32,000 nucleotides of DNA, taken from the NCBI GenBank assembly GCA_008080745.1, contig SHMX01000009.1, forward strand, positions 1-32,000, in the 5' to 3' direction. Source of the stretch: Candidatus Thorarchaeota archaeon. Lineage in GTDB: Archaea > Asgardarchaeota > Thorarchaeia > Thorarchaeales > Thorarchaeaceae. Both the position numbers and the translations under genes were made by a program. Positions 3 to 16,270 of the stretch are shown here, piece after piece; the first letter of the stretch is position 1, and each line of letters starts with the position of its first letter. The notes under the pieces were generated by a model. The model was given only the letters and a program-made list of their open reading frames with translations, was not told the origin of the DNA and did no database searches.

Positions 3-674
3 CAAGATGCGGCTAAGATATTCTTCGAAGGAATCTTGCCTGCTGAAGCTAAGACCTTCAAGGATGGACTGGAACTCATCACCTATGCAAAGGAACAGGC
101 TCAGGGTCTTATCGATGCTGGCGTATCCACTCAGATAATCTCTGAACTGGTTCTGAAACAGGCTGCTGGCCATATACAGTTTGATGCAATTATAGAGGTA
201 GTAGCTCCCGGATATGGTACTATCATCTACACTCATGGTCCTAATGGTATAACTCGGTGGAACTCACAAGGTAAAATGATTCGAAACACCGATGCAACTG
301 GTATCATTCCTATGGATCAACAAGCATGGTCAAATGGAGCCCCTCAGGGGTTGACGCGTGTCAATGTGTATGATGTACAACCTGATGGTACGTTTCTTGC
401 ATCTCATCATATCCTTGACTCTGCACTAGGGTCTGCAATTCTATCGTCTGTTAGTTCATCCGACCTAAAGGTAAATCTCAATGATTATTGTAGAAGGAAC
501 TCTATTGGGGGCGCAGAAAAAGAAAGACTCGTTAGTATCCGAGAACTAATAGATGCTACATTCGTAGAAGGCTCTTCAAAATTCTGCTATGATATCCTAG
601 TTGCCGCAGTTCTCAACTCACCAGTGGAACACCACCATCTCGGACCAACCCAGTGTTCAGGGGACATCAAGTGA
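3..674 (+). CDS. Hypothetical protein, C-terminal part (frame is open to the window edge)
   Basis: The frame of ORF 36..674 has no stop back to position 3 (QDAAKIFFEGILPAEAK...). No family recognised. Confidence 0.6.
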   Translation, partial: QDAAKIFFEGILPAEAKTFKDGLELITYAKEQAQGLIDAGVSTQIISELVLKQAAGHIQFDAIIEVVAPGYGTIIYTHGPNGITRWNSQGKMIRNTDATGIIPMDQQAWSNGAPQGLTRVNVYDVQPDGTFLASHHILDSALGSAILSSVSSSDLKVNLNDYCRRNSIGGAEKERLVSIRELIDATFVEGSSKFCYDILVAAVLNSPVEHHHLGPTQCSGDIK

Positions 675-744
675 AACGGACCTATTAGTTCAGCAATCAT
701 AATTTATAGAGGTGGTCTGCTAATCATTGTAACGTGGTGGAGTA

Positions 745-1540
745 ATGTCAAAGAAACCGAAATACTGGGACTCGTGGAAAGGTCGTATTCTTCGTGCTAT
801 TATTCTTGACAAGTTAGAAACATGGACTGAAGTAAGAGAGAGGGCAGGACTGGAACAACGGCAGATGTTTAAAGTTGTCCGCGAATTGCAGCGATTGGGC
901 ATACTAGAATACTTGGATGACAAAAGATTTCGAATGTAGATGCAGCTATTCAGAGTGCATATGAGAGCACTCAAGAAGAAGTCCCCGTTAAAGAGGTCCC
1001 AAGAACAACTCAAGAGCATGTCAAATGGATTGCATCATGGATTGAACATGAGAAGATTGATGCATCTCTTGAGAAGAATCACTTCTTTCTAAGTGGGAAG
1101 GAATTGACAGAAATCACAAGTAAACTAATGGATAAGGCAAAACACACTCTCTATGTAGCTAATCCATTTGTGGAGGGTGCAACCCTAGGCAAATGTCTTC
1201 GAAACGCTGCTAAGCGAGGAGTCAAGGTACTTCTAATCTCAAGACGTCCTGTTGATGATCCGAAGAAATGGGAGTTTCACAAAACACTTACAGCTGAGAA
1301 AGTATTGATGTACTATTCAGGCGGTTATGGCGGTGCTGGTGGTATCCATTCTAAACTCGTCATTATTGATGAAGAAGTAGCTATTATCTCGTCCATGAAC
1401 TTTACTGCAAATTCTGAGGCTTTAACTTGGAAACTGGCATTGTCACAGTGGATAAAGATGTGGTAGTAACGGCTCTTCAATCAATTCTTGACATTATAGA
1501 TGAGAATGAAACCACACTTGCCCAAGATGTTCATCGATAA
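745..1540 (+). pseudogene. wHTH + phospholipase D-like (HKD) domain protein, two frameshifts
   Basis: 745..939 is an HTH-like N-terminus. The next frame is open 921..1466 and carries IHSKLVIIDEEVAIISSMNF (HxKxxxxD...SxN). A third frame from ~1430 gives ETGIVTVDKDVVVTALQSILDII...HR* (TAA 1538-1540), the expected PLD C-terminal strand and helix. Confidence 0.7.
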
Positions 1541-1684
1541 TGTGCAATACTGTTATAATCCCTCGATAGCAATTTTCCATCCAAGCTAGCTAGACTACAA
1601 AAAAGCGGCAAATTTCATCCAAAAATCAGCGTTCGTAACCGACACTATATATTGTGACTTTTCGAGTTTCTTCGCGATGCCCGA

Positions 1685-2161
1685 ATGCCGTTTGGACGAC
1701 AGCGATACACAGCCTTTCGAGTCACAGTGGCTGACCTGAAGAGAGGAATCTACAACAAGGACCACATCGGCCACCTAGTCACTTCACCGGAGGGATTGAT
1801 TCTAAGAAGGGTGATGGTGGCTGGCCTAGTCATAGATAGATTTGCCACCGATAACAGGTCTTACGCCTACATCATGGTGGACGATACCACAGGCTACATT
1901 CGACTGCGGGGGTGAGGCAGGGAGGCTGTGATGCTGTCTGAGGTTCCGGTGAACGTATTCGTGCTGGCAATGGGACGAGTGCGTCGGCGGGAGGAAGAGA
2001 TATACCTGCATCCAGACTTTGTGAGGGTGTTTGATGATCCGGAGTTGTTCATGCTGCATTTGCTTATGCGTGAGAGGAGTATCAAACTCAATCTTAGGGA
2101 AAACGAATCAAGAGAGTCTAGAATAGGAATGAGACAGGACGTTTCTCTCTCAATACAATGA
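1685..2161 (+). pseudogene. RPA32/RPA2-like OB-fold ssDNA-binding protein, in-frame TGA and truncated
   Basis: RRVMVAGLVIDRF...YAYIMVDDTTGYIRLRG*GREAVMLSEVPVNVFVLAMGRVRRREEEIYLHPDFVRVFDDPELFMLHLL. ORFs 1685..1915 and 1928..2161 share a frame. The TGA (1913-1915) falls where homologous OB folds usually have Trp. Confidence 0.7.
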
Positions 2162-2294
2162 AGAAATGGTTCGAATCTCTGGATAGTTTTTAATGATGAT
2201 TTTATCCAAATTATTCTCTTCTCACTCTTAACAGGTCATATAGTATCAAATTGTAGAATCTCAACTGAGATCGTTCTTGATGCATCTGTGTGAT

Positions 2295-2460
2295 TACGCA
2301 TTTTTGCAAATTATGATAAATTTGCGATATGCAGATTCTCATGGAATCTGCAACACAGACGAGCGGGGGAAGGACAAAAGTTACTTACCTCTTCGTCCAC
2401 TGTTGAGCACCCTATTTTCATTTTGCATTGATTATTTGGTTGAGTGGATACTAGGTTTCA
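2295..2460 (+). repeat. 16S-trailer repeat copy 1 (lacks the rRNA part; hairpin 1 doubled)
   Basis: tacgcattttt-gcaaatt..aatttgc-gata-t-gcagattc..gaatctgc-aacacagacgagcgggggaaggac...cttcgtccactgttgagcaccc...ttggttgagtggatactaggtttc. Confidence 0.9.
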
Positions 2461-2496
2461 GATATCCAATCAATAGTGCTAACCCGGCAAAATGGA

Positions 2497-4539
2497 TCAA
2501 TTCTGTTTTTCTTCCTTCATCTCATCCAGAACCTGTTGAGTTTCTGCTAGTTCCCGCAACCTCTCATACTTCTCTCTACGAAGATGTCTGATTGTTACAA
2601 GTACAATCACAGTCGCAACTGAAAGTGATGTCAAGGTTATCGGGAAACTATGATATTGTATGACTTCAAGGAGTGGAACCTGGGGGTCTAAGGGGTTCCA
2701 TCCGTTATAGACCTCCCATCTATCAGAAATATCGTCTCCATCTGTGTCCCAGAGATTGGGGTCTGTTCCGTGAAGGTACTCGTCAAGATTCATTAGTCCA
2801 TCCTCGTCCAAGTCAAAGAATGCATCATCAATTAAGGGATTCAGACCATTAGTGATCTCCCAGTGGTCCGCCATTTGATCACCGTCTGAGTCAGAACTAG
2901 TCGGGTCTGTATTGTATATATTATACTCTTCTGCATCACTTAGAAGGTCTCCATCTGTATCATTGTCGAAACGGTCAGTTCCAATCTCGTTCTCTAGATA
3001 GTCTGGTAATGTATCCCCATCTGAGTCTCCGCAGTCTCCCAACTTGAAGAGAAACCCATTGTCAAATCCGCTGGTTTGGGAGAAGTTCTTGGAGTTAATC
3101 ACTGGAAAGTCCTCCGAAATGGTTTCCCCTACTCCAATGATACATCCATCCTCCGATAGATGTATTGCTCTTGGAGTATCTCCCTTTGACCCCCCTACAA
3201 GTACAGAGTATTGCAACGTGTTGCTGAACTTCACTACAAAACAGTCATCTAATCCTGAGTACATTGAGATATACTGTCCATATATCCGAAAATCTGTTGA
3301 TCTAGTAAATCCCCCGAGATATATTTGGCCTTTAGTATCTACACACACCTCCGATGCTTCATCCATGTTCATCCCTCCTATTAGAGTTGACCATATCAAA
3401 TTATTTTGACTACTATCGAGTCGTAAGATGAACGCATCATTCGTTCCATTCAGAGTTCCATCATACGGGTTGTCTGTCAGAGGGAAATCTTCTGAATAGG
3501 TAGTTCCACAGATGATGATCTCCTCACCTGTGGGAACGATGTTTCTTGGAAAGTCGTCATCACTTCCCCCAATTCTTAGAACGTCTGCGACATCAAATGA
3601 TCTATCCAGAGATACGATGAGGCAGTCAAATTGACCCAGTGACCCCTTAGTTTCAAAGGTCTGTAGTGGATATACTACTTCTGTTGAGTCTGTGTATCCG
3701 TATAATCTGAATATCGCCTGTGTATCGATACAGCAATCTGTACACCTATCCTCTCCATCACCTCCAATCATTCTGGAGACAACTATCGTGTCGGAGGTCA
3801 AATTCCTGATTGTGAAAAACATATCCGATACACCTCCTTTGAATCCTCCTTGGGTGCAGTTGTAGACGGGAAAATCATAACTAAAGGTAGTACCCACTAT
3901 GTATATTTCCCCTTCTTGTAACAGCCCGATTTTTGATGGAAATTCATACGAGTCTCCTCCTATCAGTGATGAATACACAATCGTTCCATTAGCGTCTACC
4001 ACTGTGATGAAGCAGTCTGAATTTTCAATCGAAGGAATTCTATTATATGTCGAGTTTACAATTGGATAATCAGTTGAATATGTGTATCCTGTAACGATGA
4101 TATTCCCGTTTGCATCAAGTGCAATGCTTGTGGGAAAATCGTCTCCGGTCCCTCCAAACCTACTCAAAGCTACGATACTGTCTTCTTCCATATCACCTTG
4201 TATGATTACACAATCATAGTCACTATTATTGCTGATTTTTTTCGCTCCTAGGAAGTCATCAGAATTGGTCCGGCACAATGCATAAATCTCCCCATTTGTA
4301 TCTTCGACGATATCTACAATTCGATCTCGGTAGTCTCCCCCAATGATAGTTGAGTAGTAAAATGGATTAGTTGGTATATTTGATTGAGATTTACAGGTAA
4401 ATATCCCTTCTAACTCTCGATCTTGCCTCTCTATTAGCGAAATGGAAACGTATACCTCTGATACCCCGATACTAACAAATAGAAAAAAAAGAAGAATGAA
4501 ATGAAACTTCTTGAATGTCATATGATATTTCTCAAACAT
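2497..4539 (-). CDS. Membrane-anchored surface protein: SBBP-type beta-propeller repeats + Asp-rich DxDxDG Ca-binding (TSP3-like) repeats + C-terminal TM
   Basis: N-terminal hydrophobic signal; repeated GGxGDDxxxSIAxD blades; DSDGDTLPD/DTDGDLLSD/DSDGDQMAD repeats; hydrophobic C-terminal helix followed by a basic tail. Confidence 0.8.
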   Translation of the reverse strand: MFEKYHMTFKKFHFILLFFLFVSIGVSEVYVSISLIERQDRELEGIFTCKSQSNIPTNPFYYSTIIGGDYRDRIVDIVEDTNGEIYALCRTNSDDFLGAKKISNNSDYDCVIIQGDMEEDSIVALSRFGGTGDDFPTSIALDANGNIIVTGYTYSTDYPIVNSTYNRIPSIENSDCFITVVDANGTIVYSSLIGGDSYEFPSKIGLLQEGEIYIVGTTFSYDFPVYNCTQGGFKGGVSDMFFTIRNLTSDTIVVSRMIGGDGEDRCTDCCIDTQAIFRLYGYTDSTEVVYPLQTFETKGSLGQFDCLIVSLDRSFDVADVLRIGGSDDDFPRNIVPTGEEIIICGTTYSEDFPLTDNPYDGTLNGTNDAFILRLDSSQNNLIWSTLIGGMNMDEASEVCVDTKGQIYLGGFTRSTDFRIYGQYISMYSGLDDCFVVKFSNTLQYSVLVGGSKGDTPRAIHLSEDGCIIGVGETISEDFPVINSKNFSQTSGFDNGFLFKLGDCGDSDGDTLPDYLENEIGTDRFDNDTDGDLLSDAEEYNIYNTDPTSSDSDGDQMADHWEITNGLNPLIDDAFFDLDEDGLMNLDEYLHGTDPNLWDTDGDDISDRWEVYNGWNPLDPQVPLLEVIQYHSFPITLTSLSVATVIVLVTIRHLRREKYERLRELAETQQVLDEMKEEKQN

Positions 4540-4580
4540 TTCCGAAACCTCATTTCATATCTGCTTTATCATGGCTAACT

Positions 4581-6035
4581 TTACAATGTCACTCCTTGAT
4601 TGCCTAAAATGACTGTTATATCTCCAATGTCTGGTTCTTGTGTGTCTGCACAAGCAAACGCTTGAGATACGGTGTCACCATCATCGAGGGCGTCCCAGAA
4701 TGCTTCTGTAAACGATACTCCATCTGCTTGATCAACCGCATCATCAAATGTAACTACTGCATTTTGGTATATAGTAAGGTCCCCAAAGGTTGTCTGTTTT
4801 GAGTGCCAAAGCATTTGATATGGAATACAATCCTCTTCATTTCCTAGTGATGACCACCCTGAGTAACAGTGGAGAAGATACACAAGATATCGATTTGGAA
4901 CGTTTGATGTGATATCTGACGCGTACACATAGGAGATTGGTTGTCCATCATCTATTTGAATACGATTGCATGTGCCAGTATATCCACCATGTCCGACTGA
5001 GAAGAAAACATAGCTTGACGATCTTGTTAGCCACTGACTTTTGGAAGGCTGATTAATATAGACTGCACTATTCAAATTTGAATCCAAAATGTCGTAAACA
5101 TATTCCATAATGTCATATGCCGGATCTCCTGATTCATCTCCACTATAATCTGTATTTACGCTACTTCCTTCGTACTGAATGAGATATCTTCCATCTTTGA
5201 GAAAATCACCTGTCATGGCTGAGATTCCGATCCGACCAAGTTCATTCTCAATAACCCATGTCAGTTTGGCCTCGCTAGGATTTTCAAATTGTGTTATCCA
5301 CTCAAGACTCGTTTTACAGGTTGCGGTATAGCTTGCTGGAAACAATCCAAGATTCACGGCTTTTTGTATTGCTTCACTGGATGTCACACGGCAGGATGGA
5401 TCTGCAAAGTTTTCTGTCCACTTGATAGTGAATGCTGAAACCTCTCCACTGAATGGATTCACTTTTATCCGAATATAATCATCACGACACGGAAATCCTG
5501 ATTCACATCTCTCGATCTCTACGAACCAACCATCACTCCTCTCTCTTGCTGTTGCTCCATCAATTCCACCTAGATGGTTATATTGAGTAGAGAGAAATCT
5601 GAATGCACTGCTTCGTGCTTCCTCCTCCTCTACTAGCCAACAATATGACTCTGAATTTGATACAAGCTTCGACGTATCAATGAATGAAATTAGATTATGT
5701 GAATCACATTCAATTTGGATTTTTCTCATCTGAGCTCCTCTATCCCAGATGATCGTCCAGACCTTTTTGTATGTGGTAGGATCGAAATCTTTCGCAATTC
5801 GTCTTAGAGTCCACTGGTTATCAATTCTCGCAACATAATATGCTTTCTCTATTGCTTCGACGCACTCTTGATCTAGGCCTTCAATTTGCTGCTGAAGTTT
5901 GTTGAGCATATTCCTCTCTAGTGTTGTATTCAGTATTACTTGATTAGGTTGGAAGAATCCAATCCCTACTCCTAGTACAGGCGTACAGATAATCACAACT
6001 ATCAGAATAAAAGTTCCATTCCTATGAAACTCCAT
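4581..6035 (-). CDS. Secreted protein with PepSY/YcdB-like N-terminal part and possible caspase/gingipain-fold C-terminal domain
   Basis: Signal-like N-terminus; W-x-V and IKVNPFSGEV PepSY-like strands; FFSVGHGG and LVYLLHCYSG resemble the His-Gly / Cys dyad motifs of the caspase-hemoglobinase fold. Confidence 0.5.
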   Translation of the reverse strand: MEFHRNGTFILIVVIICTPVLGVGIGFFQPNQVILNTTLERNMLNKLQQQIEGLDQECVEAIEKAYYVARIDNQWTLRRIAKDFDPTTYKKVWTIIWDRGAQMRKIQIECDSHNLISFIDTSKLVSNSESYCWLVEEEEARSSAFRFLSTQYNHLGGIDGATARERSDGWFVEIERCESGFPCRDDYIRIKVNPFSGEVSAFTIKWTENFADPSCRVTSSEAIQKAVNLGLFPASYTATCKTSLEWITQFENPSEAKLTWVIENELGRIGISAMTGDFLKDGRYLIQYEGSSVNTDYSGDESGDPAYDIMEYVYDILDSNLNSAVYINQPSKSQWLTRSSSYVFFSVGHGGYTGTCNRIQIDDGQPISYVYASDITSNVPNRYLVYLLHCYSGWSSLGNEEDCIPYQMLWHSKQTTFGDLTIYQNAVVTFDDAVDQADGVSFTEAFWDALDDGDTVSQAFACADTQEPDIGDITVILGNQGVTL

Positions 6036-6420
6036 ATTATCCTTCCTCCGAAATTATGTTTTACCCCTTTACAAATTAATATATATATATCTATATATCT
6101 TTCATAATCTCCGTCATTTAAAACAGTTTGCTCGTTGTGATTGATGTAAGGGGGTTGAACCAATTTATTTCAGTAGTGGCTAAGCCTGTTGTCCTTGGTT
6201 TCAGTCATACTATCTATGGATTTGAAACATGAATTAATAAAATCAGTCTATGAAATGGCCATTGTCTTTAGTCCGACTGGATCTAGGTCTAGAACTCTAG
6301 GGAATTCTATATGTTATTGAATTATGACTATACTGAAAAAACAAAATGAAATAACCCAAAGACTGATTTAGATAATCTAGATTGTAGTACTTGAAATTAG
6401 TTTGAATTGTAACTAGAGAA

Positions 6421-7188
6421 TTGATTGTGATGATGACAATTGCACCAAGGATGGTAGGAGATTATCCATTCAACACTGACGATGCCACTGCCTTAGTTTC
6501 ACTGCTGGATGGGAAAATTGGGGAGAATTTGAAACGGATGATGTTGGATTTCTATCCTGAAACTATTTCCCAATTATTTTCAGATCCTGAAAAATCCCGT
6601 TTGGAAGCTCTTGCAGGATATGCAAATCTTCAGAGAGCACTTCGACAGATTCAATTAGATGAATCAATTTTCTCAACTGTCCAAAACAAATATGGTTCTG
6701 TTATCTATGCGAATTTATCTTTTTCCTTGAAATCATTAGAAACTCTGATAACCCCTCTCCTGATGTCTGTTACTCAGCCCACCTCGATCGAATATGAGCT
6801 TTCTGATGAGCAATTAGATGAATTAACGGAGCAGTTGAGGTCATTTGTACTCAATTCTCAAGACTTTCCCGATGCTACTCGATTGAAGGAAACAGGAAAC
6901 CAGGACCTATTGTCCGAACTGGTAATGGCGTTCAATATTGGATTATTCATTGTCCTCGTCTTTCTGGTGATCAATTTAGCCAAATCCAAACATGAATTAT
7001 CTGACGTGCAGATATCCGAAATTGAAACTCTCCTTCGTGATTGGTCTCAAGAAGTCCTAGCTCAACTCACTCTCTTCGGACCTGTGAAACCTCAAGATGT
7101 ACACACTATTAGCTTGGTTGGAATTGATGCTGATGAAGAGGATGTAGAGCTTGCTGATTCATTCTCTGGATATGTAGATGAGGAGTAG
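6421..7188 (+). CDS. Hypothetical protein overlapping the mazF start; candidate non-canonical partner
   Basis: 255-aa ORF with a hydrophobic stretch and acidic tail; overlaps the mazF ORF by 11 nt. Confidence 0.65.
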   Translation: MIVMMTIAPRMVGDYPFNTDDATALVSLLDGKIGENLKRMMLDFYPETISQLFSDPEKSRLEALAGYANLQRALRQIQLDESIFSTVQNKYGSVIYANLSFSLKSLETLITPLLMSVTQPTSIEYELSDEQLDELTEQLRSFVLNSQDFPDATRLKETGNQDLLSELVMAFNIGLFIVLVFLVINLAKSKHELSDVQISEIETLLRDWSQEVLAQLTLFGPVKPQDVHTISLVGIDADEEDVELADSFSGYVDEE

Positions 7189-7555
7189 ATTGATAGTGTC
7201 CTCTCCATCATCTTTCAATGTTGGAGATATTGTATTTGTAGATTTAGAACCTGTAAAGGGGCATGAACAGGGCAGAAATCGTCCTTGTGTAGTTGTTGCA
7301 ATTCCCACCAAGCAATCCTCTGGCCGAGGGCATTTTAATCTCCTTATAGTGGTCCCTCTAACATCACGTGAGCGGAGATGGTGGACTGTGGTCAAAATCC
7401 CTAATCAATCTGGACTTATTTCAGTATCTTATGCACTCTGTCATCAGATTCGGTCTATTTCCACAAAACGTGTTTTGAATACCACAGGTGCGATTCGGAA
7501 TAAAGATCTTATGAAGATTCGAATTGTCTTGGGTGGTGTACTCTCGATTCCCTAA
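7178..7555 (+). CDS. mazF: MazF/PemK family endoribonuclease toxin
   Basis: GDIVFVDLEPVKGHEQGRNRPCVVV, IVVPLTS, SYALCHQIRSIS: PemK/MazF signature motifs. Confidence 0.92.
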   Translation: MRSRLIVSSPSSFNVGDIVFVDLEPVKGHEQGRNRPCVVVAIPTKQSSGRGHFNLLIVVPLTSRERRWWTVVKIPNQSGLISVSYALCHQIRSISTKRVLNTTGAIRNKDLMKIRIVLGGVLSIP

Positions 7556-7696
7556 ATCACCTCCTACGCATTTCATGCAAATTTCCAAGAAATTTGCGAT
7601 AACATACAGACGAGCGGGGGTCGGACAAACAGTTACTTGCCTCTTCGTCCACTGTTGAGCACCCTTTCATTTTCTTTATTCTTGTCAGGATGAGTG
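7556..7696 (+). repeat. 16S-trailer repeat copy 2 (starts at ATCACCTCCT directly after the mazF stop)
   Basis: atcacctcctacgcatttcat-gcaaattt..aaatttgc...cagacgagcggggg...cttcgtccactgttgagcaccc. Confidence 0.9.
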
Positions 7697-7787
7697 AAGG
7701 TCAAAATTTTATCAATTCTGATTCTATCTCCCTAAAACTTTTTTAATAACTCTCATCATTATTGTTATACATTCTGGTGGGATTTGA

Positions 7788-9158
7788 TTGCAAATAGAAG
7801 TATACTTTGCTCAACTACGTAAGAGAGTGGACTGGATAGGACCCAAGTGCCTTATTGCAATGATCGGTCTATCCTTGGTACTGCTAATTGCTACCGTTGA
7901 AACGTCTCTCATTGAGGAGCCATTTGATTTCTCCACAACCCTTTCAAGCATCGGTGTTGTAGCATCTGTCTTCACCTTCGGAATCCCCTTTTCAATTGGA
8001 GCTGTGGTGATGTGGACTACACCAAAAGCTCACCAATCCATGTTGCGCACAGAACCAACCTCCTCATACATAAGAAGAACCTATCTCTCTCGGTTGATTC
8101 TCTCAACAGGACTGTCTTTCTCTGTTCTCTTCATCGGTGCCCTCGTCGGATTTGTGATCTATGGTGGAGATTTCACCTATTTCCCCTCGGTTCTTGTAGC
8201 CTCTCTTCTGGTTGGCATGATGCTTACTCTCTTGGTCTTTTCCCTTGCTCTATACTTGGACTCGCCAAAGTACACTCTTGTGATATCCACCTTGTTGTTC
8301 CTGTTTCTATCCTTTGAATTTGGTTGGTCTCCTCGGTCTGCAGATGACATATTCTCTCTCTGTACTCCGTATCATCTTTTCAGATATCTTGCTGTAATCC
8401 TGTCTGGATACCAATTTCCTCATGAGCAGGCAATGGAGCACTACATGGGAGTATATGCTGACTTCACCGTTCTACTAGGTCCTCTTCTGCTGTGGAGCAT
8501 AGCATCTGTGTTCTCAATCCTCGGATCATTATATCTGTTGAAGGGGAATATGATGCAATGGAGGAAGGAGTCATCTACGTGGGATGATGGAGCCCTTGGT
8601 TCAATGGAATCTCAACCTTCAGGTATGGTCGTTCATACTCATAAAAGAATCAAGATCATGGCAATGTTGATCGTGATACTCTTTTCGGCAGCTACCATAT
8701 TCAATACAGTCCTAATTCCTGCTGGTAGACAGATTCCAGAGGAGTTCTATCTCTATCAGAGTCCGGAAACGGGGGAACCAATCACTCTTGGCTCATGGAT
8801 GTACGATTCAGTCTACATCTCAGACACCCTTCTCTCACAGACAGATGGTTTCACATTGATGGTCACTATTCTGGAATGGGGTGGATATAGTGGGGATGAT
8901 GGCCTCCAAGTCAAGTATGATATGGTTTCTCTCTCAGTATCACAATTCGAAGCGATGAACGAAACTGAACGTGAAGATGCTATTTATCCCACTTCTCGAG
9001 GTCTAACTCCCGATAGACCCGCAACAGGTCCTGGCGTGCAACATTCGATAGATGATGCTGGCACCTATCTATGGGCTTTTCGATTTACGGATACATCTAA
9101 CGAAACTGCTGCCTATACCATAGTAGTGTTCATTGAAATATACTTCAATCCTGTCTAA
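7788..9158 (+). CDS. Multi-pass membrane protein (ABC-2 permease-like) with C-terminal extracellular domain
   Basis: About 7 hydrophobic segments, a PYHLFR loop, and a soluble C-terminal ~140 aa. No ABC ATPase is adjacent. Confidence 0.55.
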   Translation: MQIEVYFAQLRKRVDWIGPKCLIAMIGLSLVLLIATVETSLIEEPFDFSTTLSSIGVVASVFTFGIPFSIGAVVMWTTPKAHQSMLRTEPTSSYIRRTYLSRLILSTGLSFSVLFIGALVGFVIYGGDFTYFPSVLVASLLVGMMLTLLVFSLALYLDSPKYTLVISTLLFLFLSFEFGWSPRSADDIFSLCTPYHLFRYLAVILSGYQFPHEQAMEHYMGVYADFTVLLGPLLLWSIASVFSILGSLYLLKGNMMQWRKESSTWDDGALGSMESQPSGMVVHTHKRIKIMAMLIVILFSAATIFNTVLIPAGRQIPEEFYLYQSPETGEPITLGSWMYDSVYISDTLLSQTDGFTLMVTILEWGGYSGDDGLQVKYDMVSLSVSQFEAMNETEREDAIYPTSRGLTPDRPATGPGVQHSIDDAGTYLWAFRFTDTSNETAAYTIVVFIEIYFNPV

Positions 9159-9288
9159 TCATCTGAATTAGTAATCGATAAATGCAGGAGTTTTCCCGTT
9201 ACTAATAATATTTATTAGATAGATAATAATATTCTGTTAGTGTGGTTGGAATTGAAATGTTTCGTAGATACGAGATGTTATTCTTATC

Positions 9289-9960
9289 ATGGGAAATGAG
9301 ATTATGAAATTAGGAAGAATACCTACTCGTGTAGGTGCTATGCTATTTGTAGTTCTTTTTGTGATATATGCTAATCCGACTCTAGTTGCAGCTACATTTG
9401 GTGGAAGTGACACTCCAAGTTATGATGTATCTTCTGGAAGTGGAGGAGAATATGATATTGTTCGTGCGAATTCTGCCAATGGTGTTTGTGAAATTCGTGT
9501 TAAAGAAAAGAGTTGGCCTGCATCCTACCCGGATGACTACGTAGGATATGCATACGTTGGTGTGGAATTTGTTCCTACCGAGGATATCGGTAACAACTGG
9601 AAGCTTATGGCCAGTTGGGATTTGGAATATGAACTGAAAGCAAATTGGTGGAGTTGCATTCGAATTGATGTGGTACATTCTGTTCGTGATGAGAATTACA
9701 ACAGACTCTGGCCTTCCCAATCCAAATATAGTGTTGAACTAGCATCAACTGGTATATTCTATGAATCTACAGGTGCTGATTACTCGGGTTCCACAACTGC
9801 ACAGTGGGGTATTGATTTGGATGAAGGCGAAACATACTATTTCTGCATAGAGTTGCTGATTACTGTAGTAAATGGTGGTGCAGTATTTGCTACTAGCTAC
9901 TATGATTCCGACGATCCTGTGTCTTTGACAGTTAATTCCATTTCGTGGAGCTATCTCTAG
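9289..9960 (+). CDS. Secreted hypothetical beta-rich protein
   Basis: Signal peptide (AMLFVVLFVIYANPTLVAA) followed by a Ser/Tyr/Trp-rich domain. Confidence 0.7.
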   Translation: MGNEIMKLGRIPTRVGAMLFVVLFVIYANPTLVAATFGGSDTPSYDVSSGSGGEYDIVRANSANGVCEIRVKEKSWPASYPDDYVGYAYVGVEFVPTEDIGNNWKLMASWDLEYELKANWWSCIRIDVVHSVRDENYNRLWPSQSKYSVELASTGIFYESTGADYSGSTTAQWGIDLDEGETYYFCIELLITVVNGGAVFATSYYDSDDPVSLTVNSISWSYL

Positions 9961-9979
9961 GAATCCAAACTTTTTCTTG

Positions 9980-10012
9980 GAATCAAGATAATGATATCTT
10001 GATTCTTTTTTT
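9980..10012 (+). terminator. Hairpin + T-tract terminator-like element
   Basis: Perfect 11-bp stem gaatcaagata-atga-tatcttgattc followed by T7, 20 nt after the stop of 9289..9960. Confidence 0.6.
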
Positions 10013-10047
10013 GGGATTCCGACTTGATCCATCTGGTTTCAATGTCC

Positions 10048-10268
10048 TATCTCTAACAAGGTATCCGTAGCGGAAGCTGCGGATGGATCATCTCCTACGC
10101 ATTTTTCGCAGATTTTACAAAATCTGCAATAACAGACGAGCGGGGAAGGACAAACAGTTACTTACCCCTTCGTCCACTGTTGAGCACCTTTTTCATTTTT
10201 GCAATGATTATCCTGTTGAGTGGCAACTAAGTTTCCAGACTCTGGAGATAGTCCCAGATGGCGATGAT
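10048..10268 (+). repeat. 16S-trailer repeat copy 3 (full length, with rRNA part and coding tail)
   Basis: tatctc-taacaaggtatccgtagcggaagctgcggatggatcatctcct-acgc...cctgttgagtggcaactaagtttccagactctgg. Confidence 0.95.
10054..10096 (+). rRNA. 16S rRNA 3'-terminal fragment (helix 45 + anti-SD), not a full gene
   Basis: Matches the universal SSU 3' end TAACAAGGTA-CCGTAG-GGAA-CTGCGG-TGGATCACCTCCT, with one C>T change in the anti-SD. Confidence 0.9.
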
Positions 10269-10439
10269 GGTTTTTTCTTTAATCGCAGGTGTTACTGAGA
10301 GTCTTATCGCACTTGGGTTGCAACGGGTCACGGACGGTTCCGCCAATGCAATGTCTGTGTTTCCACACAATCAACTCCAAGTTTATTAGATACCAACTAA
10401 ATCATCATCTGTACAGATTGTTCTATGAGGTCGATTCTC

Positions 10440-10808
10440 ATGCCTGAAGATGAAAAAAGAGAACTGGTACGATTCACATATCAATACAGCCCTGATTTTA
10501 GAGAAGAATATGTTACAGGGGCTCGTGGTGGCATCCAAAACATATACCACCTTAGACTTGATTTCTATAATGAACGATCCAAATTACGTTCTCTTGAGGA
10601 TTCACTTGTTGAAGATACTGATGGCTCACGAAGAATCGAACCCACGGAATCATCAAATGAGCCAGATATCATTGAGCGTACATTCAAAGTGGGATTGGTG
10701 TTATCCTTCAATGCTGTTCGTGAACTTTCTCGATTTCTCGCAGAAAAAGTGAAAGAGATAGATGAGATTGAGAGAAAACTCGCTAAGCAAATTACTGGTG
10801 GTGAATAA
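10440..10808 (+). CDS. Hypothetical protein, DUF3467-like
   Basis: YSPDFREEYVTGARGG...LRLDFYNER and VGLVLSFNAVRELSRFL resemble this small family. The stop is 4 nt before the next ATG. Confidence 0.55.
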   Translation: MPEDEKRELVRFTYQYSPDFREEYVTGARGGIQNIYHLRLDFYNERSKLRSLEDSLVEDTDGSRRIEPTESSNEPDIIERTFKVGLVLSFNAVRELSRFLAEKVKEIDEIERKLAKQITGGE

Positions 10809-10812
10809 AGAG

Positions 10813-11130
10813 ATGATTGATGATGAACACTATGCAAAGGGTCATTCAGATACGGGTACAACTAATCCTGATTGGTACAAGCTAGGTTCGATATCGGATA
10901 TGATATCTAGTTCCAGTATTACCCATATTCATATGGATTCAACTGCATCCACTTCAGCTGATAGTACTCGTTCTACTAAATCATCATCTATTGACAGTCT
11001 GATGAAACTGTTTGGAATATTGGATGAAGAAACTGCAGATGCTATTGAGGATGCCATTGAAGAGTATCGTAAACGTCATGACAAAGCAATGACTAGAAGA
11101 ATCCAGGAGCGATATCATGATCCTTCTTGA
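10813..11130 (+). CDS. VapB-like antitoxin with Ser/Thr-rich N-terminus
   Basis: The C-terminal SLMKLFGILDEETADAIEDAIEEYR resembles the toxin-binding helix of archaeal VapB. It overlaps the vapC start. Confidence 0.6.
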   Translation: MIDDEHYAKGHSDTGTTNPDWYKLGSISDMISSSSITHIHMDSTASTSADSTRSTKSSSIDSLMKLFGILDEETADAIEDAIEEYRKRHDKAMTRRIQERYHDPS

Positions 11131-11512
11131 TACTAGTTTCGTGATAGATCTCATGAGAGGAAATACTGATTGTATGAAGTTGCTTCAAGATACTGAAGCC
11201 AGAGAGGAGGATGTTTTTCTGTCTACCATATCTGTCTACGAATTACTCGTAGGTGTTGCTCATGCAGATAATAAAATAGATGAAGAGCAGAAAATACGGG
11301 AATCTCTATCAGCAATTACCACCATCGATTTCGATAAGTATTCATCCTACGAATCGGGTACCATCTATTCAGAACTGAAGTCGCAAGGTTCTATGATCAA
11401 CTCTTTTGATATTCTCATTGCTGGTATTGCACGAAGACATAACTATTCTGTCATGACTCGAAATGGATCTGATTTCAATCGAATAAATGGTCTTCAAGTT
11501 ATTGAATACTAG
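11117..11512 (+). CDS. vapC: VapC PIN-domain ribonuclease toxin
   Basis: MILLDTSFVID, ISVYELLVG, FDILIAGIA, VMTRNGSDFNRI: PIN acidic tetrad motifs. Confidence 0.93.
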   Translation: MILLDTSFVIDLMRGNTDCMKLLQDTEAREEDVFLSTISVYELLVGVAHADNKIDEEQKIRESLSAITTIDFDKYSSYESGTIYSELKSQGSMINSFDILIAGIARRHNYSVMTRNGSDFNRINGLQVIEY

Positions 11513-11541
11513 TTTCTGTTTTTCATTTCGTAATCATTGTT

Positions 11542-11732
11542 TATCTCTAACAAGGTATCCGTAGCGGAAGCTGCGGATGGATCACCTCCTACGCATTTTA
11601 TCGCGAATTCTCATGGAATTCGCAAAACAGACGAGCGGGGGAAGGACAAACAGTTACTTACCCCTTCGTTCACTGTTGAGCACCCTTTTCATTTTTGCAA
11701 TGATTATCCTGTTGAGTGGCAACTAGGTTTCA
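11542..11732 (+). repeat. 16S-trailer repeat copy 4 (full rRNA part)
   Basis: tatctc-taacaaggtatccgtagcggaagctgcggatggatcacctcct-acgcatttta...gttgagtggcaactaggtttc. Confidence 0.95.
11548..11590 (+). rRNA. 16S rRNA 3'-terminal 43-nt fragment (helix 45 + anti-SD), not a full gene
   Basis: TAACAAGGTATCCGTAGCGGAAGCTGCGGATGGATCACCTCCT; 10-bp stem TATCCGTAGC/GCTGCGGATG closing a GGAA loop. Confidence 0.93.
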
Positions 11733-11784
11733 CGTGTATCCTTATATCCGTCAAAATCTAACTACTCTTAGAGGTCTGATTCCC

Positions 11785-11982
11785 TTGGCTACAAAGACTA
11801 TCACCATTTCAGAAGAGGTCTATAACCTATTGGAGAAGATGCTCCTTCCGGGTGAGAAGATAGAGGATGCGATACTCCGCCTGTGTGGTATCAAGAGTAG
11901 TCTTCATGATTCTGATTTTGAAAAGGGTCTCGAAAAGATCATCACTGAAGATGCAGAGCTTCTCAAACGACTTGCAAAATAG
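11785..11982 (+). CDS. Antitoxin (DUF217/VapB-type N-terminus) paired with Doc
   Basis: TTG start; ATKTITISEEVYNLLEKM...KIEDAILRL; C-terminal FEKGLEKIITEDAELLKRLAK; 1-nt overlap with doc. Confidence 0.8.
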   Translation: MATKTITISEEVYNLLEKMLLPGEKIEDAILRLCGIKSSLHDSDFEKGLEKIITEDAELLKRLAK

Positions 11983-12383
11983 TGCGTGGTGCATACTTCG
12001 TGAGATATTTGACCTATGATGAGATCCTGTCTATCCATGACCGTTTGATAGAATTCTTTGGTGGCGAGAGTGGTGTTTTTTCGGTCAATGCATTGGAGAA
12101 CTGCGTATCCCTCCCTATGATGTCAGTATTTGGAACTGAGACCAATCCCACAATCTGGTCAAAAGCTGCAGCACTTCTTTATTGTATACTCATTCGTCAT
12201 CCCTTTGTTGATGGAAATAAGAGGACTGCTTGGACCGCTGCGAAGCTCTTTCTCTATCTCAATGGATATGACCTACAAGTTGACGTGGATGATGCCTAGG
12301 CAAAGATTCTCAGGATACTGAAGGAAGCGTCATCAAATGATTCGATTGCAGAATGGCTTGAACAGTGTTCTACGAAAATATAG
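11982..12383 (+). pseudogene. doc: Doc (Fic-family) toxin with premature in-frame TAG
   Basis: HPFVDGNKRTA Doc motif. TAG at 12297-12299 is followed in frame by AKILRILKEASSNDSIAEWLEQCSTKI*, the usual Doc C-terminal helices. Confidence 0.85.
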
Positions 12384-12398
12384 TTTCTTCATTGCTTT

Positions 12399-12539
12399 CT
12401 ATGCATTTTTCGCAAATTCCATGAGAATTTGCAAAACAGACGAGCGGGGGAAGGACAAAAGGTACTTGCCTCTTCGTCCACTGTTGAGCACCCTTTCTTC
12501 TTTTGCAATGATTGTCTGGTTGAGTGGATCATAGATTTC
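12399..12539 (+). repeat. 16S-trailer repeat copy 5 (no rRNA part)
   Basis: ctatgcatttttc-gcaaattc..gaatttgc-aaaacagacgagcgggggaaggac...ctggttgagtggatcatagatttc. Confidence 0.92.
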
Positions 12540-12803
12540 GCATTCTTATTGTGACCGTTCATTGTTTATTGGACAATCTTGGACATCAGAGCGTTGGCCT
12601 CCCAGGTAACGGCACTGGGTGAGACTCTGTCCTGGTCAGGGATACTATGTCTTTCAACCATATCTTTCCTCCGTATCAAGCTATATAAACCCCTATCGGA
12701 ATCGGTCCAGCAATATCCAAGTTTTAAGAAGATGTTCGCAACCCCTTACTTGTTGAAATTGTTGATTTTATATGTATATGTACTCATATGTATGGTGATC
12801 GAA

Positions 12804-13046
12804 ATGGCAAAGAACATCGCTTTGGCAGAAGATGTCTACAGAGACCTCAAACGTATGAAAAGAGAGGGTGAAAGTTTTAGCGACCTGATTCGAAGACTGT
12901 TGAAGACAAGAGGGGCGATTTCCGACCTTGCAGAATCTGCGACACTCAGTACTGAAGAATGGTTGGAGATGAAAAGACTGAAGGAAGAACAAGCGGCTCT
13001 TGATGAGAGCCGAACAGATATTCTTCTCTCAAAACAAGAAGGGTGA
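12804..13046 (+). CDS. vapB: VapB antitoxin (DUF217-type)
   Basis: MAKNIALAEDVYRDLKRMKREGESFSDLIRRLL; GGTGA SD-like motif at 12794. Confidence 0.88.
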   Translation: MAKNIALAEDVYRDLKRMKREGESFSDLIRRLLKTRGAISDLAESATLSTEEWLEMKRLKEEQAALDESRTDILLSKQEG

Positions 13047-13052
13047 TTTTTC

Positions 13053-13457
13053 GTGCCACTCTTTGATACGAGCTTTCTCATAGATCTCACTAGAGGTGAC
13101 GTTGGTGCTATATCCGCCGCAAAACAGGTCGATGGAACCGCTGACATTAAAGCGGTATCTGTGGTGACGGTCCACGAGTATTTACGAGGGGTCTATTATC
13201 ACCACATCGGGAAGAAAACGCTGGATGGTAAGCTCCGTAAAGCTCTCACAGATCTTGCGCATTTTGAACAACTGGAATTCACTCCCTCCATTGCACGAGA
13301 AGCTGCATATACCGATGCTCTGTTACTCAAGCATGGAACTACGATTCCCTATGCTGATGTTGTAATTGCAGCAACCGCAAAGCATCACAATATCCCTTTG
13401 GTCACACGTGATGCTCATTTCAGAGCTATTGATGATATTGTATTGATAGACTACTAG
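13053..13457 (+). CDS. vapC: VapC PIN-domain ribonuclease toxin
   Basis: LFDTSFLID, VTVHEYLRG, ADVVIAATA, LVTRDAHF. Confidence 0.92.
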   Translation: MPLFDTSFLIDLTRGDVGAISAAKQVDGTADIKAVSVVTVHEYLRGVYYHHIGKKTLDGKLRKALTDLAHFEQLEFTPSIAREAAYTDALLLKHGTTIPYADVVIAATAKHHNIPLVTRDAHFRAIDDIVLIDY

Positions 13458-13465
13458 ATGCCCTA

Positions 13466-13501
13466 GTATCCGTGGCGGAAGCTGCGGATGGATCACCTCC
13501 T
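13466..13501 (+). rRNA. 16S rRNA 3'-terminal fragment (helix 45 + anti-SD), not a full gene
   Basis: Same as copy 4 except one A>G change that converts an A-U pair to G-U. Confidence 0.9.
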
Positions 13502-13632
13502 ACGCATTTTGCAGATTCATGATAATCTGCAGTATAGACGAGCGGGGGAAGGACAAAAGTTACTTGCCTCTTCGTCCACTGTTGAGCACCCTTTCATTTT
13601 TGCAATGATTGTCTGAATGAGTGTGAACTAGA
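13466..13632 (+). repeat. 16S-trailer repeat copy 6 (rRNA part from helix 45)
   Basis: gtatccgtggcggaagctgcggatggatcacctcct-acgcatttt-gcagatt..aatctgc...ctgaatgagtgtgaactag. Confidence 0.95.
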
Positions 13633-13698
13633 CTCTTGTGTTTCTCTATTGATCTGGAATAGTATCATTTCTATTTCCGATTATTCCATGAATCCCGC

Positions 13699-13998
13699 TT
13701 AGTCCGATTGTTGACTTATATTTCTGTATTGCCATAGTAGGTCCACTACTAATCCCATAAGAATTGCTGAGTCAAAGAATATTGCATTTGGATTTACGAG
13801 CATGAAATGCCCTACCGTAAATACACACCATCCAATCATGCACATGAGAAGGAAATAGACTGTCCTTTTTTGCTGCTTAAGTTTTTCATCCTCTTCATAT
13901 TCGTTCACCAGTTTCCAGAGTGTACCTCTTCCAATGATACAGATGAAAAAAAGCAGTGTAAACGCGGTTCCGTGAATTGCTGCTACTAGTGTTTGCAT
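13699..13998 (-). CDS. Small membrane protein (3 TM)
   Basis: Three hydrophobic segments in 99 aa. Confidence 0.55.
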   Translation of the reverse strand: MQTLVAAIHGTAFTLLFFICIIGRGTLWKLVNEYEEDEKLKQQKRTVYFLLMCMIGWCVFTVGHFMLVNPNAIFFDSAILMGLVVDLLWQYRNISQQSD

Positions 13999-14184
13999 AT
14001 CTTTCTCTCCATATCTCCGAATATTCTCAGATTGGTGGACTCAACCAAACTCGATCATCATGATATCCACCATAAGGTGCTGCATCACATTGATGTTGGT
14101 AGTCATAGATTGCGGAAAACGGATATAACAGTCCCCATTCGTAGTCCATGACATCGAAATGAACGAATGATGTATCCCCATCCC

Positions 14185-14283
14185 TTCTATTGCACAGTCA
14201 ATTTGGTTGAGTATGAACTAGGTCTCCAGAGTTCGCAGGTAGTTTCAGGCGGTGATAGATTCGCCTCTTGAAAGAACAGTGAT
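14185..14283 (+). repeat. Right-end-only copy of the 16S-trailer repeat with coding tail
   Basis: ttctattgca...tttggttgagtatgaactaggtctccagagttcgcagg...gatagattc...gaaagaacagtgat aligns to 16020-16120. Confidence 0.7.
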
Positions 14284-14323
14284 TTTATAATCTCTCATAC
14301 ACATACATACACGAGTGAACAAT

Positions 14324-14566
14324 ATGGGGTACAAGACAATCTCACTCTCTGAGGAAGCCTATGCTATTTTGAAAAAAGCAAAACGCGAGAATGAGAGTTT
14401 TAGTCAAGTTGTTATCAGGCTCGCACAAAGACGAACATTGAGTGATTTCATAGGATGCATCTCAGAAGAATCAGTAAGTAAACTGACTTATGCACTAGCT
14501 GACTTCAGACAAGAACGGTCCAAGGTCTGGTCAAAAAGCATGGAAGAGTTGGTGAAGGACCAATGA
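14324..14566 (+). CDS. vapB: VapB antitoxin (DUF217-type)
   Basis: MGYKTISLSEEAYAILKKAKRENESFSQVVIRL; ATGA overlap with vapC. Confidence 0.9.
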   Translation: MGYKTISLSEEAYAILKKAKRENESFSQVVIRLAQRRTLSDFIGCISEESVSKLTYALADFRQERSKVWSKSMEELVKDQ

Positions 14567-14955
14567 TTGCGGACTCGAGTTTTGTTATTGATATTATGCG
14601 AAATGATGAATCGGCACTACAGAAACTTGAACTGATAAAAACGAGTCAGAGTCCTCAATATCTAACATCTCCAACAGTAATGGAACTTGCGGCAGGTATA
14701 TCTCTGGCAAGACTACCAAATAGAGAACAGAATCGAATCGATATTATCATGGAAGAATTCCAAATACTTCCCCTTGACACGGCATCTGCATGGTGGGCAG
14801 GTCTGGAGCTTGGCCGGTTGAAGAGAGAGGGGATGATTGTTGATCCAATCGATGCACAGATTGCTGGCATTGCAGTCAAACATCAGGAAATTGTTGTGAC
14901 CCGAAATATCCGACATTTTGAACGATTCAAAGACTTGAGTGTAGAGTCATACTAA
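14563..14955 (+). CDS. vapC: VapC PIN-domain ribonuclease toxin
   Basis: MIADSSFVID, TVMELAAG, IDAQIAGIA, VVTRNIRHFERF. Confidence 0.93.
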   Translation: MIADSSFVIDIMRNDESALQKLELIKTSQSPQYLTSPTVMELAAGISLARLPNREQNRIDIIMEEFQILPLDTASAWWAGLELGRLKREGMIVDPIDAQIAGIAVKHQEIVVTRNIRHFERFKDLSVESY

Positions 14956-14988
14956 TTCTGATTTCAGATTGAATTAGTCCTTTCAACT

Positions 14989-15108
14989 CGCAGATCTAGA
15001 AAATCTACAAAACAGATGAGCGAGGGAAGGTTGATGTTTCTATCCCTCACATCACTGTTGAACACTCTATTTTCATTTTTGTTATTATCTGACCGAGTGT
15101 AGCTTAGA
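14989..15108 (+). repeat. 16S-trailer repeat copy 7 (divergent)
   Basis: cgcagat..atctacaaaacagatgagcgagggaagg...tccctcacatcactgttgaacactctattttcattttt...gaccgagtg. Confidence 0.8.
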
Positions 15109-15176
15109 GTTTAGGTCTATCTCTAGATACTACATAAGAGTCATATACACTGTCATATATAGTATACATGATTACA

Positions 15177-15479
15177 ATGGCACATGTGTTGTCAGTTCGC
15201 TTGGATGAAGACTTGGAGAAACGTCTTGCATTCCTGATGGAGAAACGTAAGATAGTAGACAAGTCAGCCTATGTTCGTCGTTTGATTGATCGTTCACTTA
15301 GAGAAGACCTTCTTGACTTCCTCTCTGGGGAGATTGCTGCAAAACGTATTAGTATGTGGAAGGCTTCTTCAATAGCAGGAATCTCGTTGAGAGCAATGAT
15401 GATTGAGTTAGCAAAACGCGAAATCTCCATCTATGATGAACAATCACTGAAGGAAGATCTGCTCTTTGCAGAGGGATAA
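15177..15479 (+). CDS. RHH / UPF0175-like antitoxin
   Basis: VLSVRLDEDL RHH strand; ISMWKASSIAGISL...SLKEDL UPF0175-like C-terminus; adjacent to a DUF3368 PIN gene. Confidence 0.8.
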   Translation: MAHVLSVRLDEDLEKRLAFLMEKRKIVDKSAYVRRLIDRSLREDLLDFLSGEIAAKRISMWKASSIAGISLRAMMIELAKREISIYDEQSLKEDLLFAEG

Positions 15480-15482
15480 TTC

Positions 15483-15980
15483 ATGATAGGAGTTGTGAAT
15501 TCCTCACCTCTCATTTACTTGGGGAAGCTTGGTCTTGTTAATCTATTGAATGAACTCTTCGATGGCGTATTCACAACGCGTTCTGTGATGAATGAAGTGC
15601 TTGATGATACATCACCCGAGTTTGCTATTCTCACAGATGCCTTTGCATCATGGTTGAATCTGTCTGATGTCATAATATCTCCTCTCTCTACAAAACTCTG
15701 TGAAATGGGGTTACATCAAGGCGAAGTAGATGTAATCACTCTTGCATTCGATATGAGAGAGAAAGGGCCAGTTGTGATTATTGATGATCTTGCGGCACGG
15801 GATATTGGAAGAACTCTTGGATTGTATATAACTGGAACAATTGGAATCATATTGCGTGCTGTGAAAAACAATATGCTCTCCAAAACAGATGCTGTTGTCA
15901 AGCTAAACTATCTCGTACAAGAAACTCCGTTCCGTATCTCTACTAAACTGTACTTGCAAATCTTAGAACAGCTGAGATAA
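15483..15980 (+). CDS. DUF3368-type PIN-domain protein (putative toxin)
   Basis: VVNSSPLIYLGKLG, LHQGEVDVI, IIDDLAAR, ITGTIGIIL, FRIS. Confidence 0.88.
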   Translation: MIGVVNSSPLIYLGKLGLVNLLNELFDGVFTTRSVMNEVLDDTSPEFAILTDAFASWLNLSDVIISPLSTKLCEMGLHQGEVDVITLAFDMREKGPVVIIDDLAARDIGRTLGLYITGTIGIILRAVKNNMLSKTDAVVKLNYLVQETPFRISTKLYLQILEQLR

Positions 15981-15985
15981 TCATG

Positions 15986-16122
15986 CTTCCCCTCGCGTTC
16001 ACTATTGAGCACCCTATTTTTATTTTTGCAATAGTTACTCGGTTGAGTGTTCACTAGGTTTCTAGACTCTGCAGGAAGTCCCAAATGGAAATAGATTCTC
16101 CTCCGGAAAGAACAGTGATCTC
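15986..16122 (+). repeat. 16S-trailer repeat copy 8 (right half plus coding tail)
   Basis: cttcccctcgcgttcactattgagcaccctatttttatttttgcaa...cggttgagtgttcactaggtttctagactctgcagg. Confidence 0.85.
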
Positions 16123-16159
16123 ATTTTCGCTTATACACCTACATACATGAGTGAACAAT

Positions 16160-16270
16160 ATGGGAAACAATATAATCTCACTCTCTGAGGAGGCCTATGC
16201 ACTTCTGCTCCATCCTCAATGGTGTTACTCATGCTCGCGAGGAGTCGGAAATTTCTGGTATTGGAAATGA
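16160..16270 (+). pseudogene. Truncated vapB antitoxin remnant
   Basis: MGNNIISLSEEAYALL matches MGYKTISLSEEAYAIL (14324), upstream region included, then loses homology. Confidence 0.75.

Follow-up and report, generated by a model that had tools for sequence, protein, structure and literature searches.

The DNA analysed here, referred to throughout as the window, comprises 32,000 nucleotides (nt) of a Candidatus Thorarchaeota archaeon, positions 1-32000 of contig C9 (SHMX01000009.1) in a 3.16-Mb archaeal genome that is 98% complete (G000). Repeat finding and motif searches revealed eight co-oriented direct copies (T1-T8) of the 3' flank of the host's 16S ribosomal RNA (rRNA) gene, and these units alternate with gene cassettes that consist mostly of toxin-antitoxin pairs (Table 1). 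The cassettes encode MazF with a partner of 255 amino acids (aa), two unknown open reading frames (ORFs), three VapB/PIN pairs, one Phd-like/Doc pair and one UPF0175/DUF3368 pair. A unit reads, in order, 0-45 nt of the 16S 3' end, ACGCATTT, hairpin 1 with its 8-bp stem, AACAG, hairpin 2, a core (CACTGTTGAGCACC), a T-run and a right part of ~40 nt that ends near GAGTGG.ACTAGG. The core is identical at 14 of 14 positions in six copies (T1-T6), and elsewhere in the genome it is found only as its complement inside the 16S leader. The array closes with T8, which is followed by a gene for an 1849-aa surface protein and by housekeeping genes. Scans of the window for Rfam families and transfer RNA (tRNA) genes returned no match.

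A first-pass annotation of this DNA had read compensatory substitutions in both hairpins of the repeat as a sign of conserved structure. It left a choice between selection of each copy for an attC-like fold and import of each copy from the co-varying rRNA trailer of another lineage. It had overlooked the truncated eighth copy (core at 16000-16013), the second, tandem hairpin in the first copy (2306-2325) and the decay of hairpin 1 in the seventh copy, where 6 of 8 pairs remain.

Table 1. Trailer-derived units (T1-T8) and intervening cassettes (A-G), in window coordinates
Feature	Positions	Strand	Content
T1	2296-2460	+	no 16S fragment; extra hairpin 2306-2325 (gcaaatt/aaatttgc); hairpin 1 2331-2351 (gcagattc/gaatctgc); hairpin 2 2358-2397; core 2398-2411; T-run; right part
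Cassette A	2497-7555	mixed	beta-propeller/TSP3 protein 2497-4539 (-); DUF4901 protein 4581-6035 (-); 255-aa unknown protein 6421-7188 (+); MazF toxin 7178-7555 (+)
T2	7556-7696	+	final 10 nt of 16S (ATCACCTCCT) abutting the mazF stop; hairpin 1 7577-7597 (gcaaattt/aaatttgc); hairpin 2 7609-7649; core 7650-7663
Cassette B	7788-9960	+	two ORFs, 456 and 223 aa, without Pfam match; 82% identity to a cassette in sister species G001
T3	10054-10235	+	43-nt 16S 3' end 10054-10096; hairpin 1 10108-10127 (gcagatt/aatctgc); hairpin 2 10135-10174; core 10175-10188
Cassette C	10425-11512	+	127-aa unknown ORF; VapB-like antitoxin; PIN (VapC) toxin
T4	11548-11735	+	43-nt 16S 3' end; hairpin 1 11603-11623 (gcgaattc/gaattcgc); hairpin 2 11630-11670; core 11671-11684
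Cassette D	11716-12299	+	VapB/Phd-like antitoxin; Doc (Fic) toxin
T5	12399-12530	+	no 16S fragment; hairpin 1 12412-12432 (gcaaattc/gaatttgc); hairpin 2 12439-12478; core 12479-12492
Cassette E	12579-13457	+	VapB; PIN toxin; repeat resembling a miniature inverted-repeat transposable element (MITE) 12554-12660 in the 5' region
T6	13466-13631	+	36-nt 16S 3' end 13466-13501; hairpin 1 13511-13530 (7-bp stem, gcagatt/aatctgc); hairpin 2 13537-13576; core 13577-13590
Cassette F	13699-14955	mixed	99-aa ORF (-); VapB 14315-14566; PIN toxin 14563-14955
T7	14985-15110	+	decayed; hairpin 1 remnant 14990-15008 (6/8 pairs); hairpin 2 variant 15015-15052 (GATG..GAGGGA/TCCCTC..CATC); core 15053-15066, 2 mismatches
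Cassette G	15168-15980	+	UPF0175 antitoxin-like protein; DUF3368 PIN-like protein
T8	15975-16062	+	truncated, no hairpin 1; remaining: 3' arm of hairpin 2, core 16000-16013 (1 mismatch), T-run, right part

The units are copies of the 16S rRNA 3' flank

The single 16S gene of the host lies at the end of contig C2, which stops 34 nt past the gene, within hairpin 1. The last 77 nt of this contig, which cover the genuine 16S end and the first part of the native trailer, are identical to positions 11548-11624 in T4. The repeat therefore duplicates the 3' flank of the host's own 16S gene. Units T2, T3, T4 and T6 are continuous with the mature 16S 3' end and carry the lengths of it that are given in Table 1. 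In relatives, including the closed genome G025, the array begins at the 16S gene.

In archaea, the leader and trailer of pre-16S rRNA form a processing stem that is cut by the splicing endonuclease. The 16S leader of the host holds TATGCTCAACAGTG plus the complement of the hairpin 2 region, and when the leader was co-folded with T4, the core and the hairpin 2 region both paired with it. The right half of the unit thus corresponds to the 3' strand of this stem.

The 16S gene itself is unusually long, spanning 2411 nt (L001 1501-3911, equivalent to C2:589938-592348) against a model of 1478 positions. The insert encodes a 262-aa ORF (L001:2464-3252) with a LAGLIDADG_3 domain and is probably an rRNA intron with a homing endonuclease.

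Covariation is significant in hairpin 1 and nearly absent from hairpin 2

The hairpin 1 stems reported by the first-pass annotation are all present in T1-T6 (Table 1), and each folds as predicted. The seven full copies of the window were aligned with nine from G001, a sister species and the only other genome of the same genus. This alignment of 16 copies (A2) was used in place of the trimmed alignments A3 and A4, which misplaced the short-loop hairpins, and RNAalifold recovered both hairpins from it. Among the window copies only, hairpin 1 has changed on both sides at 3 of 8 pairs (7 cells), and none of 5000 shuffles reached either the observed pairing or the observed number of double-change cells. 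When all 16 copies are considered, both-side changes affect 5 of the 8 pairs. Taking the two hairpins together, 19 cells show both-side changes and 94% of cells are paired; this was reached in none of 500 shuffles, and pairing fell to 42-57% in slid controls. The covariation claimed for hairpin 1 thus goes beyond chance. Its double changes are almost all transitions that are able to pass through a G-U intermediate.

These data bear on a further alternative, namely that recent duplicates decaying neutrally gave rise to the pattern by chance. In its favour, decay is seen in distal copies, and hairpin 2 is without significant covariation. However, the shuffles contradict it for hairpin 1, as do the slid controls at about 50% pairing, and we consider this explanation extremely improbable.

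From T1 to T7, hairpin 1 keeps 8, 8, 8, 8, 8, 7 and 6 of its 8 pairs, and it is absent from T8. Two of its alleles, GCAGATTC and GCAAATTC, are common to G000 and G001, and the native allele of the host, GCGAATTC, occurs in T4 only. T1 carries two hairpin 1 modules in tandem, the first of which resembles the T2 allele together with its GCGATA linker. This double module looks like the scar of an unequal join or of a deletion between two units.

Hairpin 2 has the consensus GACGAG.GGGG / CCYCTTCGTC. The compensatory changes that had been attributed to it survive only in part: the hairpin exists, and by eye T7 has one real C-G to U-A change (GATG/CATC vs GACG/CGTC), but the variation is otherwise almost all one-sided, from G-C to G-U. 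Both-side changes were found at one pair in the 16 copies and at none among the window copies in the alignment, and the shuffles gave no signal in the window. The mean fold energy of hairpin 2 is -15.0 kcal/mol in the rRNA sense and -10.7 kcal/mol for the complement, the rRNA-sense strand being the steadier one because of the G-U pairs.

Native 16S trailers of the family carry the same helix

All 14 native 16S trailers retrieved from the family, together with one from the next family, have a hairpin of 7-11 bp that begins 4-12 nt past the 16S end, and the sequences of these hairpins are unrelated. Within one genus, the native hairpins of three species differ by a G-C to A-U change and by wobble changes, and the remainder of their trailers is nearly the same. 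Hairpin 1 is thus a helix of the working trailer that is conserved as a structure but evolves fast. A covariance model built from alignment A2 recognised such units in 34 of the 61 genomes of the family, and the contig bearing the 16S gene often has several of them.

Some genera have a further hairpin insert of ~30 nt in the 16S 3' end, between GGATGGA and TCACCTCCT. It is found in the natives of G003 and G021 (L094 and L100) and in array copies (L034, L090 and L097), and it also covaries between copies, with GACGAGA/TCTCGTC in some and GATGAG/CTCAC in others.

Array copies are mosaics with variable left halves

Among T1-T6, mean pairwise identity is 0.58 in the linker left of hairpin 1, 0.68 in hairpin 1, 0.59 in the linker to its right, 0.92 in hairpin 2 and 1.00 in the core. 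The left halves, including hairpin 1, are thus variable, and the right halves are host-like. For hairpin 2, identity is 0.92 within the genome compared with 0.84 between G000 and G001, and most G001 copies have CTCACGTC at the site of CTT-CGTC in the G000 copies. The sister species carries MazF and cassettes B, D, E, F and G at 78-86% identity, in a differing order. Its copies have the left half in common with one partner and the right half with another, and the points at which they switch vary from copy to copy. Such variable switch points look like the product of homologous recombination or conversion, rather than of one fixed crossover.

The first-pass annotation had suggested comparing array copies with the trailers of related archaea, and in two relatives this comparison was positive. 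An array copy of G069 has a left half with 85-90% identity to 16S ends native to other genera, and its right half is 98% identical to the native trailer of G069 itself; the foreign portion comprises the 16S end with the 30-nt insert, hairpin 1 and a further helix. In G026, two copies have a hairpin 1 type of other genera, and one of them also has the 30-nt 16S-end insert that is missing from the host gene. In both genomes, the left halves match other genera over the host.

Paired changes could also be generated during replication, if intra-strand template switching copied one arm of a hairpin onto the other. This process would keep stems intact and give one-step, multi-base "compensatory" changes together with loop inversions. 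The mechanism and its footprints have been described for rRNA hairpins, and template-switch mutations create and maintain RNA hairpins (PMC8794818). Two comparisons would fit this process. Between T3 and T4, 9 of 21 hairpin columns differ, compared with 11 of 175 columns elsewhere (Fisher p = 2.6e-5), such that their changes cluster in the hairpin and their flanks are nearly identical. T5 and its G001 orthologue have the same short, perfect stem with inner 7 nt that are reverse complements of each other (CCATGAG vs CTCATGG). However, the T5 case is ambiguous as a loop inversion and could equally reflect two 1-nt indels, because TCATGA is nearly palindromic. In addition, almost all of the double changes are passable via G-U, as expected for selection at the RNA level; one-arm decay has been left uncorrected in several copies (G001 C81_477 and T7); and the foreign left halves in relatives go unexplained. 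We therefore regard template switching as quite unlikely to account for the pattern.

Distal copies decay

Among the window copies, mutations in the core are confined to T7 and T8, both of which have decayed; T1-T6 have a perfect core. In G001, the orthologues of T6, T7 and T8 are likewise broken, and the distal copies of the closed genome G025 have drifted even in the core. There is no sign of upkeep of every copy. The view that the copies are not neutrally decaying duplicates is accordingly sound for T1-T6 and fails for T7 and T8, which have decayed along with their G001 orthologues.

Other features of the window and assembly

The MITE-like repeat between T5 and the vapB gene of cassette E is ~107-130 bp long and has at least 16 copies on 8 contigs of G000, which cause a depth spike in public contigs; it inflates the 155-aa "VapB" ORF of this cassette. 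A 167-nt direct repeat (79% identity) links positions 14205-14371 and 16041-16207, and the stretch just 3' of T8 resembles the region of cassette F upstream of vapB and also matches G001 C111. The Doc ORF (11982-12299) measures 105 aa from a GTG start, compared with 127-130 aa in Thorarchaeota homologues, a difference that may reflect a wrongly called start or a gene truncated at the 5' end. When Doc was used as a protein query, no homologue exceeded 70% identity and no further congeners emerged.

Two public DNA runs from one study, possibly representing the source sample, were the only ones listed for this sequence, and no RNA run was listed. Every repeat interrupts the contigs of these runs, so neither a join between the 16S gene and the array nor any gain or loss of cassettes is visible in them. 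Their loose ends at 11548 derive from the 16S ends of other organisms. One public contig per run joins position 616 to 10336 and omits 9719 bases, at approximately one fifth of the local depth. The shorter arm of this join is only 33 letters long, and its two flanks lack local similarity to each other; it may represent a variant without T1-T3 and cassettes A-B, or a chimera. Five small contigs of G000 (C14, C15, C17, C18 and C19) have 62-65% G+C, compared with ~41% for the remainder, and are probably bin contamination.

Discussion

We propose that the paired changes arose under selection in working 16S trailers and then entered the array as part of the left halves, which are linked to cassettes, and that the copies later exchanged sequence; we give this reading a probability of about one half. 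It draws on the origin of the repeat, its covariation, the family-wide native hairpin, the mosaicism of the copies, the foreign left halves in relatives and the distal decay. In this model, hairpin 1 is a helix that lies a few bases past the mature 16S 3' end in the rRNA precursor, and hairpin 2 together with CACTGTTGAGCACC pairs with the 16S leader as the 3' strand of the long processing stem. A native hairpin 1 would need only to pair, and its sequence could drift rapidly through paired changes, mostly transitions; the processing-stem half, unlike hairpin 1, would be held constant. Cassettes, mostly toxin-antitoxin pairs, would be added and shuffled behind the 16S gene as trailer copies recombine with one another, and each array copy would therefore become a mosaic. 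The left part, with hairpin 1, would move with its cassette and stem from a trailer of another time or lineage; the right part is host-like. Selection on the functioning rRNA trailer would thus have made most of the compensatory pattern, of which the array contains samples; selection on every copy would not have made it, and old copies decay. We infer that the hairpin 1 variants of the window itself come from other lineages or from earlier native states, and that the recombination is homology-driven.

Of the two explanations in the first-pass annotation, import from co-varying trailers fits best, given the foreign left halves of G069 and G026 and the native helix throughout the family, but no donor can be named for the window copies. 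Several observations weigh against our proposal. A donor was identified for none of the window copies: the sole congener, G001, is without an assembled native trailer, and a metagenome scan with CGTCCACTGTTGAGCACC yielded only 14 chance matches in unrelated GC-rich contigs and no relatives. The link between the 16S gene and the array is unassembled in G000, where the 16S contig ends within the trailer with its 77-nt overlap with T4. T3 and T4 are alike at a non-native left junction (TATCTC joined to TAACAAGG), yet their differences centre on the hairpin, which requires a short conversion patch or a local change. Finally, apparent orthologues differ in hairpin 1 by paired changes alone, three between T2 and G001 C168 and one between T3 and G001 C14_6224, with no unpaired change in either comparison. 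If the arrays were inherited vertically, these differences point to compensation in place, and some paired changes between orthologous copies may have arisen in this manner.

The orthologue comparisons also speak for the alternative that every array copy is selected in place for its fold. The unit would then be either an RNA element at the 3' end of the cassette transcript, acting in stability, processing or termination with the T-run, or an attC-like recombination site. Each unit follows immediately on the stop of a toxin gene and has the same orientation as the toxin-antitoxin genes, and the identity of the core in six copies agrees with such selection. The state of the other copies does not: hairpins are broken in T7, T8 and several G001 and G025 copies, and some copies have no hairpin 1. 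Moreover, conservation of the right half is species-specific, as expected of conversion or of recent derivation from the native trailer, and the breakpoints of the mosaics differ between copies. Taken together, these points make selection of every copy in place unlikely.

As for a recombination site in particular, the attC-like reading of the first-pass annotation did not withstand scrutiny. No tyrosine recombinase (PF00589) was matched at E <= 0.001 in the 98%-complete genome or in the window, not even a XerA-type protein, and no Y1 transposase was found in the genome. Two serine recombinase matches are present on contigs C16 and C1, unlinked to the array. An attC site pairs R''/L'' with L'/R' in one bottom-strand hairpin, but the unit has two separate hairpins and no R''/R' pairing, and its G-U pairs favour the rRNA-sense, or top, strand. 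The GTTGAGC of the core fits the R' box pattern GTTRRRY and was considered as a candidate; we rejected it, since it belongs to the conserved strand of the processing stem and has its complement in the 16S leader only, with none in the unit. In a stronger version of this idea, Thorarchaeota would have a cassette system that lacks an integrase and uses the trailer copies as its working sites of recombination and expression, with both hairpins selected in every copy as a functional attC analogue that evolved from an rRNA processing signal. Such a system would explain the paired changes between orthologous array copies, but we consider it very doubtful.

The array resembles both integron arrays and tRNA-gene accretion islands, but it fails the defining tests of each. 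Integron attC arrays, including those of archaea (PMC9668308), likewise consist of small, co-oriented cassettes rich in toxin-antitoxin pairs, with a repeat after each cassette that keeps its structure while its sequence varies and with a cassette order that differs among relatives. Here, by contrast, no integrase was found, the repeat is rRNA-derived with a strongly conserved right half, and a top-strand fold takes the place of the R''-L''/L'-R' hairpin. The archaeal integron study makes no mention of rRNA in connection with attC sites (PMC9668308).

Integrative elements are known to accrete in tandem at the 3' end of tRNA and transfer-messenger RNA genes. Such islands and the present array both have direct repeats that represent part of the 3' end of a stable-RNA gene and differ in how far they extend to the left, and in both the oldest and most decayed copies lie farthest from the gene. 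The array differs in having the 16S flank as its target, in modules of 0.8-5 kb that are not seen to carry an integrase, and in mosaics with variable breakpoints. A native archaeal pre-16S flank has the same mature 3' end, trailer hairpin and leader-complementary stem strand as a unit, but here eight extra copies lie amid accessory genes with no 16S gene or leader partner of their own. In Heimdallarchaeum, the HeimM2 element is inserted between the single 16S rRNA gene and tRNA-Arg (PMC8813620). It too is Asgard mobile DNA directly behind the sole 16S gene, but it is a single element with a homing-endonuclease-like gene and not an array bounded by trailer copies. Literature searches found no paper that describes cassette arrays bounded by 16S trailers.

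Covariation is usually taken as proof that a structure functions at the very place where it occurs. In the present case, the fold is that of the rRNA precursor and its signature was passed on to the copies; therefore, covariation alone does not prove that a new structured site exists. The setting is unusual all the same: the 3' flank of the sole 16S gene serves as a reusable block of homology, behind which toxin-antitoxin and other small modules are stacked and reshuffled throughout an entire Asgard family, and no recombinase is recognisable. Should the copies act where they lie, they would be an attC-like site of known origin, with a bearing on where integron-type cassette sites arose.

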